From the NCBI RefSeq assembly GCF_003334765.1, contig NZ_QOWT01000082.1: a DNA stretch of 1,221 bases. The stretch is one strand, 5' to 3'. Positions 1-1,221 of the stretch are shown here, piece after piece. The position numbers and the translations under genes are program-made. Numbering within the stretch: the stretch's first letter is position 1; every line of letters begins with the position of its first letter. Below the pieces are notes generated by a model. That model had not been told where the DNA came from and did no database searches. It was given only the letters and a program-made list of their open reading frames with translations. The DNA is from Escherichia coli. Lineage in GTDB: Bacteria; Pseudomonadota; Gammaproteobacteria; Enterobacterales; Enterobacteriaceae.

Positions 1-26
1 TGTAGATTCAATCTGTCAATGCAACA
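1..26. repeat. Terminal inverted repeat, distal to transposase start (IRR in IS30 convention)
   Basis: Plus strand 1-26 TGTAGATTCAATCTGTCAATGCAACA compared with the reverse complement of 1196-1221, TGTAGATTCAATTGGTCAACGCAACA: 23/26 identical, mismatches at positions 13, 14 and 20 from the tip. The first 12 bp are perfectly conserved. Confidence 0.93.
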
Positions 27-1159
27 CCCCTTTCAATTATCTCTTTCGGTGTTTTGAACTTCAGTGTCTTTCTCGGTCTGTTGTTTAGCTGAGCAGCAAC
101 CAGATCTAGTTCATGTTGAGTATATTGGGCAAGACATGTCTTTTTAGGAAAGTACTGCCGAATTAGCCCATTTGTGTTCTCATTTGTTCCCCGCTGCCAA
201 GGACTCTGAGGATCGCAGAAGTAAACTTTAACGCCGGTGCTGACAGTAAATTCTAGATGTCTGGCCAGTTCCATTCCTCTGTCCCATGTCAGTGATTTTC
301 TGAGTTCTGACGGTAAACTCAGGAATTTGTCGGTAAGAGCCTGATTTACTGAGACAGAATCTTTGCCCCTGAGTCTAAGGATGATCGTATAACGTGATTT
401 TCGGTCTACAAGTGTGGCTATATGAGAGTTTTTTGTACCTGAGACTAAATCGCCCTCCCAATGCCCCAGAGAGCGTCTGTTATCGATATTTCGGGAACGT
501 TCGTGAATTGGTGTTCCGTTCACTATGTTAATCGTACCTCTTTCGCCTTTGCGGGTATGACGCCTGCCATGGCGAAGGCTATGCGACCGTCGCAGATGCT
601 GTATATTCAGGTGGTGTAGCGCTTCACGGCTACGAAAGTACAGCGTTTTATAAATTGTCTCAGGTGATATTCGCAGCGTTTTTTGACGTGGTTTTGTTCG
701 CCTTAACCATCCTGATATTTGCTCTGGAGACCATTTCATCTCCAGCTTTTCCAGAACAAGCTTTCGCAATGGTAAATTTTGATCCAGTAAGCACGGTTTT
801 GGCCTTTTCGCCATTCTGTTGGCTCGGTTATTAGCATCAACAGCTTTGTAATAGCGTCTGCCCCGATTACGCTGAACTTCACGTGAGATCGTCGAAGGAC
901 TGCGATTCAGCGCAGTAGCTATCGCACGAATGCTCATTTTGGCTGACAAACCAGCTCGTATCTCCTCGCGCTCAGACAGTGTCAGGTGAGCTACAGCCCG
1001 CTTATGCTCATGGGGTTTTATGCCGCCAGTATCCCTTAACATAGTGAAGATCGTTCCGGGTTTTGAACCCAGGATATTCGCTATTTCACTGAAGCCTGTT
1101 CCGTTCTTCCATAGTTCAAAAACAGAGGCTTTTTCCTCTGCTGTAAATGTTCGTCTCAT
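8..1159 (-). CDS. insI: IS30-family DDE transposase (InsI-like), 383 aa
   Basis: Seen in sequence: uninterrupted 383-codon ORF, ATG at 1157-1159 (minus) and TGA stop at 8-10 (minus) inside the inverted repeat. Very basic, Arg/Lys-rich protein. N-terminal helix-turn-helix-like segments (approx aa 20-45 GTGFSEIANILGSKPGTIFTMLRDTG, and aa 68-95 RAGLSAKMSIRAIATALNRSPSTISREV). Candidate catalytic residues by my residue count: D237 (HWEGD, codon 449-451), D293 (TWD, codon 281-283), E327 (TNE, codon 179-181). Spacing of 33 residues between the second D and E matches the DD(33)E signature of the IS30 family (established knowledge). The translation matches my recollection of E. coli InsI essentially throughout; not verified by search. 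Confidence 0.96.
   Translation of the reverse strand: MRRTFTAEEKASVFELWKNGTGFSEIANILGSKPGTIFTMLRDTGGIKPHEHKRAVAHLTLSEREEIRAGLSAKMSIRAIATALNRSPSTISREVQRNRGRRYYKAVDANNRANRMAKRPKPCLLDQNLPLRKLVLEKLEMKWSPEQISGWLRRTKPRQKTLRISPETIYKTLYFRSREALHHLNIQHLRRSHSLRHGRRHTRKGERGTINIVNGTPIHERSRNIDNRRSLGHWEGDLVSGTKNSHIATLVDRKSRYTIILRLRGKDSVSVNQALTDKFLSLPSELRKSLTWDRGMELARHLEFTVSTGVKVYFCDPQSPWQRGTNENTNGLIRQYFPKKTCLAQYTQHELDLVAAQLNNRPRKTLKFKTPKEIIERGVALTD
14..19 (-). promoter_or_regulatory. Outward-facing consensus -35 hexamer (TTGACA) inside the distal inverted repeat
   Basis: Plus strand tgtcaa at 14-19 = TTGACA on the minus strand, 13 bp from the element tip and directed out of the element. Established knowledge: IS30 forms a strong promoter when two ends are joined with a 2-bp spacer, with -35 in one inverted repeat and -10 in the other; such a -35 can also pair with a fortuitous flanking -10. 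Confidence 0.6.
179..451 (-). other. DDE catalytic core of transposase (D237-D293-E327 by my numbering)
   Basis: Codons read directly from the sequence: plus-strand atc 449-451 = GAT (D), gtc 281-283 = GAC (D), ctc 179-181 = GAG (E). Residue context HWEGD...TWD...(33 aa)...NE fits the DD(33)E pattern of the IS30 family. Confidence 0.75.
875..1102 (-). other. N-terminal DNA-binding region of transposase (two HTH-like motifs, approx aa 20-95)
   Basis: Inference from translated sequence: helix-turn-helix-like segments in the first ~100 residues. Established knowledge: IS30-family transposases carry N-terminal HTH DNA-binding domains. Boundaries are approximate. Confidence 0.6.
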
Positions 1160-1167
1160 TCAAAAAA

Positions 1168-1172
1168 CCTCC
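1168..1172 (-). promoter_or_regulatory. Shine-Dalgarno sequence (GGAGG) for the transposase
   Basis: Plus strand cctcc at 1168-1172 = GGAGG on the minus strand, separated from the ATG (1157-1159) by an 8-nt spacer TTTTTTGA. Confidence 0.8.
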
Positions 1173-1202
1173 GCAACCCCATGTTTTCACATAACTGTTG
1201 CG

Positions 1203-1208
1203 TTGACC
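1203..1208 (+). promoter_or_regulatory. Outward-facing -35-like hexamer (TTGACC, 5/6) inside the proximal inverted repeat
   Basis: Plus strand ttgacc at 1203-1208, 13 bp from the right tip, directed out of the element. It is the counterpart of the TTGACA in the other repeat, degraded by one of the three repeat mismatches. Confidence 0.35.
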
Positions 1209-1213
1209 AATTG

Positions 1214-1219
1214 AATCTA
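1214..1219 (-). promoter_or_regulatory. -10-like hexamer (TAGATT) at positions 3-8 of the proximal inverted repeat; -10 half of the predicted end-to-end junction promoter
   Basis: Minus strand reads TGTAGATT from the tip. If the distal end is abutted with a 2-bp spacer, TTGACA + 13 bp + 2 bp + TG gives a 17-bp spacer to TAGATT (4/6 match to TATAAT, with T1, A2 and T6 preserved). In the isolated element this hexamer has no -35 within the element. Confidence 0.45.
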
Positions 1220-1221
1220 CA

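Follow-up and report, generated by a model that had tools for sequence, protein, structure and literature searches.

Position 14 of the IS30 terminal inverted repeats: a conserved difference between the ends that may serve two overlapping -35 elements

The two terminal inverted repeats of IS30 differ at three positions, and a comparison of related elements indicates that only one of these differences, at position 14 from the tip, is an asymmetry that is consistently kept, with G in the left repeat (IRL) and T in the right repeat (IRR). By the same comparison, position 13 would matter only in IRL, and position 20 appears to drift at both ends. The explanation that we favour, with a probability of about 0.65, is that position 14 is a base pair common to two -35 elements that lie on opposite strands and exclude each other, namely that of the junction promoter Pjunc in IRR and that of the resident transposase promoter in IRL.

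IS30, its junction promoter and its left-end promoter are already known and were described in the 1980s; the addition made here is comparative, namely that the asymmetry at position 14 is conserved and those at positions 13 and 20 are not. The result suggests that departures from perfect symmetry in terminal repeats are not always noise, as one mismatch seems to be under an end-specific selection that fits promoter function and the other two drift. It is useful for interpreting the ends of newly discovered elements of the IS30 group, and it has a bearing on whether an inserted copy can activate an adjacent gene, the consensus -35 sitting at the IRR end. Little otherwise rides on it, IS30 being a textbook insertion sequence.

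The element and its imperfect repeats

The window (the whole stretch of DNA analysed, 1221 bp) is a complete IS30 in reverse orientation, and copies annotated as 'IS30-like element IS30 family transposase' are 100% identical to it over positions 1-1221. It shows no sequence difference from the IS30 of E. coli K-12 (Dalrymple, Caspers, Arber 1984), the same element with the same three repeat mismatches. Among 5426 complete E. coli genomes, 3825 contain matches to IS30, at 9766 places in all, and 4237 of the 4350 E. coli IS30 records stand at an identity of at least 99%. The E. coli copies are thus nearly clonal, so the fixity of any base within E. coli is weak evidence when taken alone.

The single long open reading frame in the window (8-1159, minus strand) encodes the IS30 transposase of 383 amino acids and has its Shine-Dalgarno sequence, GGAGG, at 1168-1172 on the same strand. 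The protein is 99% identical to cluster P0004, 'IS30-like element IS30 family transposase', for which the precomputed Pfam domains are HTH_38 (PF13936) and rve (PF00665). Because this frame lies on the minus strand, window positions 1196-1221 are IRL and positions 1-26 are IRR. IRL, which adjoins the start of the transposase gene, is on the minus strand and reads TGTAGATTCAATTGGTCAACGCAACA from its tip inward; IRR is on the plus strand, reads TGTAGATTCAATCTGTCAATGCAACA from its tip inward, and overlaps the final five transposase codons and the stop codon. Just inside IRL there is a small palindrome or hairpin (1179-1194, minus strand; IS positions 28-43), whose pair 32-39 changes from GC to AU in seven relatives. 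The window itself has no flanks, and target-site duplication was judged at related loci, where duplications of 2 bp (AC/AC, TT/TT and GT/GT) flank complete copies and some copies are without one.

The transposase gene also contains a perfect 13-nt inverted repeat (window positions 519-531 and 1036-1048, 504 nt apart), which would be unlikely to arise by chance in 1.2 kb. We rejected it as a functional feature because its complementarity falls to only 7-11 of 13 in relatives, with no compensating changes; it looks incidental.

When the two 26-bp arms are aligned, 23 of the 26 positions (88%) are complementary, and the identity of the window as IS30 shows that this repeat did not arise by chance. 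The mismatches are at positions 13, 14 and 20 from the tip, where IRR has C, T and T and IRL has T, G and C, and the arms are identical at positions 1-12, 15-19 and 21-26. The original prediction, which had given these three differences and an identical terminal 12 bp, is borne out by this alignment. It had also placed a perfect outward -35 hexamer in the distal repeat and an imperfect one in the proximal repeat, and this too is correct, as are the labels proximal and distal given a frame on the minus strand: TTGACA, which forms the -35 of Pjunc, occupies repeat positions 14-19 of IRR (window positions 14-19, minus strand), 13 nt from the tip, and TTGACC lies at the same repeat position of IRL (1203-1208, plus strand), again 13 nt from the tip. 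The further claim that the asymmetry is concentrated in the region of this hexamer can be refined, position 14 being the only mismatch inside it and positions 13 and 20 its immediate neighbours.

Although IRR overlaps coding sequence, its positions 14 and 20 are third codon positions, and the bases found in IRL would be synonymous there. The T at position 14 of IRR is therefore not dictated by coding, and coding constraint was ruled out as the reason for its presence.

End-specific conservation among IS30 relatives

Relatives were collected from viral, genome and metagenome collections by pattern scans in which the repeat was left degenerate at positions 13, 14 and 20. These patterns fixed positions 15-19 at the matched end and yielded 23 of the 29 complete lineages, so that those 23 are unbiased only at the other end and at the N positions. 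The remaining six were chosen by transposase similarity only and come from Salmonella, a JGI genome, ISAhy3 of Aeromonas, Edwardsiella, Plesiomonas and a Shewanella MAG. Together the 29 lineages span 59-100% transposase identity, with a median internal DNA divergence of 0.32 that reaches 46% at most. Minimum numbers of changes were obtained by parsimony on a neighbour-joining tree, on which the average internal column has 3.56 changes. A wider count of ends that includes contig-end fragments covers 32 IRR lineages and 24 IRL lineages.

Some loci carry less than a complete element. IS30-type repeats with no adjoining IS30-like transposase (tblastn, E < 1e-3) were seen at L005, L057, L058, L083, L092 and L114, which may be solo ends or remnants, and the repeat at L094 is what remains of an IRR truncated by an IS3-family element.

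Among the 29 complete lineages, position 14 requires a minimum of one change in IRL and one in IRR, with G at the former end and T at the latter. Its neighbours behave differently at the two ends. The minimum numbers of changes in IRL and IRR, respectively, are 1 and 4 at position 12, 2 and 7 at position 13, 6 and 1 at position 15 (one of the positions fixed by the patterns at the matched end), and 7 and 3 at position 20; in 16 of the 29 lineages both ends have T at position 13. The wider count of ends gives the same picture for position 14, as 30 of 32 IRR lineages have T14 and 23 of 24 IRL lineages have G14, with T14 never found in IRL. In the lineages selected by protein, G14 is present in IRL in all six and T14 in IRR in five. 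This end-specific conservation, like the geometry of the hexamers, is a matter of direct observation.

Within E. coli, canonical 40-mers occur at 7072 places for IRL and 6985 places for IRR, and ends with position 14 swapped (IRL G14T or IRR T14G) occur at zero places in the E. coli genomes. In the wider set, the outward hexamer of IRL is TTGACA in none of the 24 lineages, and in relatives it degrades to TTGATC, TTGTTC, TTGAAC and GTGATC. Exceptions in IRR are few. A true IRR with G14, and hence TTGACC, is present in a Woeseia MAG (L066, 100-125, and L067, 11834-11859) and in L122 (106-131); these are contig-end fragments without a left end, and the reverse strands of the Woeseia MAG and L122 encode transposase C-termini that end in VALTN and VALTS. 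Two further lineages have variant IRR hexamers, TTGACT in L148 and TTGAAA in L084. The existence of these variants indicates that a perfect hexamer is not indispensable.

The original prediction had called for a check on whether the three mismatched positions are consistently asymmetric across IS30 copies and relatives. This is so for position 14, in about 30 lineages, and is not so for position 20, which flips freely, or for position 13, which drifts in IRR. Likewise, where the choice had been framed as one between fixed and random mismatches, position 14 is not random in the relatives, and position 13 in IRR and position 20 at both ends drift.

The junction promoter and the resident promoter

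A scan of the linear window for consensus sigma-70 promoters gave no match. Since the promoter at issue arises only when two ends are joined, we modelled the junction instead. IS30 moves by a copy-out-paste-in route whose intermediates are minicircles or tandem dimers with IRL and IRR abutted across a 2-bp spacer (PMC9333248). The modelled IRR-NN-IRL sequence has TTGACA-17-TAGATT (10 of 12 consensus matches) on the sense strand, pointing into the transposase gene, and TTGACC-17-TAGATT (9 of 12) on the antisense strand. The -10 element of the junction promoter, TAGATT, is formed by IRL positions 3-8 read inward (1214-1219, minus strand), and it is invariant in all lineages. It follows from this geometry that position 14 is the sole mismatch that alters a promoter hexamer. 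In the junction model the 17-bp promoter spacer arises only with a junction spacer of 2 bp; junction spacers of 1 and 3 nt also occur (PMC5821093) and would give promoter spacings of 16 and 18.

The sense junction promoter scores higher than the antisense one in 28 of the 29 lineages, with one tie, and in all six of the lineages chosen by protein alone. In the model, TTGACC of IRL would drive antisense transcription in the junction. The predicted difference in strength between TTGACA and TTGACC would be modest, one hexamer match, and it falls at the final base of the -35, where sigma-70 promoters are least conserved. The difference between the ends would have its setting mainly in the transient IRR-2bp-IRL junction promoter rather than in free-standing outward promoters. 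We take the existence and directionality of Pjunc from the literature, where the IRL-IRR junction is described as a strong, directional promoter that yields high levels of transposase (Dalrymple 1987, as summarised in PMC9333248). The outward -35 of IRR is experimentally known in hybrid and junction promoters (Dalrymple 1987, as summarised in PMC9330008 and PMC9333248), and a review places IS30 among the elements whose outward -35 in IRR can form fusion promoters (PMC9330008).

Intact IRR-2bp-IRL junctions were found in none of the 5426 E. coli genomes and in none of 72,556 plasmids, as expected from the literature, which describes the junction as an unstable intermediate. Four matches that cover more than 80% of the junction query consist of two ends 60-500 bp apart. 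Among the arrangements of this kind, E. coli K-12 AG100 has IS30 right and left ends head-to-tail and ~60 bp apart (H87; NZ_LN832404.1, 2694580-2694705), and NC_017627.1 has them head-to-tail and ~500 bp apart (H88; 36880-37434); both are close tandem or nested copies and not 2-bp junctions. A natural junction with a shortened left end is present on the Shigella dysenteriae plasmid NZ_CP026830.1 (L153, 164-198), where IRR-AC-IRL(1-14) retains TTGACA-17-TAGATT intact and IRL gives way, beyond position 14, to the end of an IS2 element. The IS2 insertion has apparently frozen an otherwise unstable dimer junction.

At the left end, a -35 of a potential promoter within the left IR and a -10 in the internal symmetrical sequence have been described (Dalrymple et al. 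1984, as related in PMC9783932), and it is from there that we take the placement of a -35 in IRL. Our candidate for the -35 of the resident transposase promoter is the inward TTGGTC at IRL positions 12-17 (1205-1210, minus strand), and our candidate for its -10 is an extended element, TG-n-AAACAT, at IS positions 33-41 (1181-1189, minus strand); the exact bases of both are putative assignments. AAACAT lies 18 bp downstream of TTGGTC, inside the small palindrome. With 3 of 6 matches in each hexamer, TTGGTC-18-AAACAT would be a weak promoter, and the linear consensus scan found nothing here.

Conservation of the left end fits this placement. The inward TTG at positions 12-14 is found in 25 of 29 IRLs against none of 29 IRRs. 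In IRL, T12-T13-G14 are kept and positions 15-16 vary; in IRR, positions 12-13 drift and positions 14-19 are kept. Since T12-T13-G14 are kept while position 15 drifts, G14 of IRL does not look like a relaxed outward -35, and these three bases, read inward, are probably part of the -35 of the resident transposase promoter. Within the candidate -10, IS position 37 is A in 27 of the 29 lineages, IS position 41 is T in 24, and the TG is present in 18.

The two sets of observations can be combined as follows. T14 in IRR would complete the outward TTGACA. In a circle or tandem dimer, where IRR abuts IRL with a 2-bp spacer, this hexamer would come to lie 17 bp away from the TAGATT of the IRL tip, and the abutted ends would create a strong, transient Pjunc that fires into the transposase gene. 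G14 in IRL would be the third base of the inward TTG (TTGGTC), most likely the -35 of a weak resident transposase promoter with its -10 in the small palindrome just inside IRL, and a side effect of G14 would be an antisense junction promoter that is one match weaker (TTGACC). As G14 in the inward TTG and T14 in the outward TTGACA exclude each other, each end would be specialised. We infer that selection on the two hexamers maintains position 14.

In 11 of 28 relatives the IRL hexamer is TTGATC, which creates a Dam site, GATC, at positions 14-17, over the candidate -35 (for example L137, 1452-1455, L144 and L148). GATC is found at that site in no IRR, and IS30 itself has GGTC at IRL positions 14-17. 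By analogy, a GATC over the candidate resident -35 suggests Dam-coupled control in part of the IS30 group. We know of no report of Dam control or of read-through protection for IS30, and to our knowledge methylation-coupled control is undescribed for the IS30 group. The more extended proposition, that the base pair at position 14 is common to overlapping -35 elements, that the ends have stayed specialised over more than 40% DNA divergence, and that GATC in the IRL of ~40% of relatives points to an IS10-like, methylation-coupled control, is a tentative one, to which we would give somewhat less than an even chance.

Competing explanations and known systems

The mismatches might be neutral accidents whose apparent fixity reflects no more than the youth and near-clonality of IS30 copies. 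The near identity of the E. coli records (4237 of 4350 at 99% or above) is in keeping with this, as are the drift of position 20 at both ends and of position 13 in IRR and the two IRR lineages that tolerate G14. For position 14, this reading is largely refuted by the retention of G in IRL and T in IRR up to 46% divergence, when an average column changes 3.56 times; drift also fails to predict the complementary, end-specific conservation of the neighbouring bases, 12-13 in IRL and 15 in IRR, and we consider accident very improbable. A role for the asymmetric bases in letting the transposase distinguish the ends, through affinity or through donor and target roles, would be consistent with the protection of bp 9-35, which covers positions 13, 14 and 20, by an N-terminal transposase fragment (Stalder 1990, as described in PMC7780238), with the finding that IR-targeting yields only IRL-IRR junctions (PMC9333248), and with the use that IS2 makes of end differences in such a manner (PMC3299598). 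Set against this, positions 12, 13, 15 and 20 vary at one or the other end where every other IR position is invariant, which indicates that the stretch tolerates change; the suggestion in the original prediction that the two ends may differ in transposase affinity finds no support. We also count against end discrimination that the two IS30 IRs are said, in a 2010 abstract by Szabo et al., to be equivalent in recombination; the same work reportedly assigned function to positions 2-3, 4-11, 16-17 and 20-26 and not to 12-15. Recognition of the ends is, in our judgement, a decidedly unlikely reason for the asymmetry.

Compatible with the two-promoter explanation, and not exclusive of it, is the proposal that G14 is kept in IRL chiefly as a means of disabling the antisense or outward promoter, by which antisense transcription and the activation of upstream genes would be avoided. 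The antisense junction score is never above the sense score, and the outward hexamer of IRL degrades further in relatives, to the four forms given above. Any base other than T would serve this end, however, whereas 23 of 24 lineages have G, and the proposal leaves unexplained why T12 and T13 are kept in IRL and free in IRR; we think it unlikely. RNA structure could be a constraint of another kind, if positions 14 and 20 of IRL were held by a 5' leader that pairs IRL with the region of the ribosome-binding site and start codon and so silences read-through transcripts. IS positions 1-75 fold at -19.7 kcal/mol (z = -3.1). In 20 relatives the paired cells amount to 85.8%, as opposed to 33-46% in slid controls; 17 of those 20 retain G14-U56, and the pair 20-50 is CG in 11, UG in 6 and UA in 2. 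Yet most of the pairs involve repeat bases whose invariance has other causes, and the fold itself was obtained from a member of the alignment. Covariation is weak, the observed score being reached in 12 of 500 shuffles, and the pair 15-55 is unpaired in 18 of the 20 relatives, so that the helix containing position 14 is poorly supported. With a consensus structure that is weak in both energy and covariation, an origin of the asymmetry in the leader RNA seems to us highly improbable.

The two-promoter explanation places IS30 among elements with a familiar arrangement. In IS911, IS2, IS21 and IS256, as in IS30, IRR supplies an outward -35 and IRL an inward -10, and the two come together only when the ends abut in a circle or dimer, which gives the transposase a strong promoter for a short time (PMC9330008, PMC3299598). 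IS2 requires a 1-bp junction spacer for the 17-bp promoter spacer (PMC3299598), whereas IS30 requires 2 bp, and the limitation of donor and recipient roles by end differences in IS2 is not indicated for IS30.

Within the IS30 family, end-specific outward -35 boxes appear to recur, to judge from the repeats of two more distant elements. ISApl1, upstream of mcr-1.5 (L151, 396-418 and 1439-1461), has an outward TTGACA in IRR and TTGTAA in IRL; the hexamer takes in two of the three mismatches between its IRs, as it does position 14 in IS30. In an ISAba125-like element (L152), IRR has TTGAAT, which is the reported -35 of ISAba125 fusion promoters (PMC9330008). The transposases of these elements are only ~38% identical to that of IS30, the hexamer lies ~5 nt from the putative tip as against 13 in IS30, and, unlike IS30, neither has a good sigma-70 -10 at the matching place in IRL. 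No comparable sigma-70-type junction promoter was found in the closest outgroups (L149 and L150, 47% identity), and the exact geometry is therefore specific to the IS30 subgroup.

IS10 and IS50 offer a parallel for the left end. Their transposase -35 lies in the terminal repeat over a Dam site, and a leader structure blocks the translation of read-through transcripts. IS30 resembles them in that the candidate resident -35 is inside IRL and in having a leader able to pair IRL with the region of the start codon, and it departs from them in having GGTC instead of GATC, GATC being present only in the 11 of 28 relatives. For a transcript entering from outside (window positions 1158-1221, minus strand; IS positions 1-64), a long hairpin is predicted, in which IRL positions 6-11 pair with positions 59-64 and cover the AUG, and IRL positions 20-25 pair with positions 45-50, adjoining the Shine-Dalgarno sequence. 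A transcript starting near IS position 48 is without any of this hairpin, which, by analogy, could provide an IS10-style protection against read-through expression.
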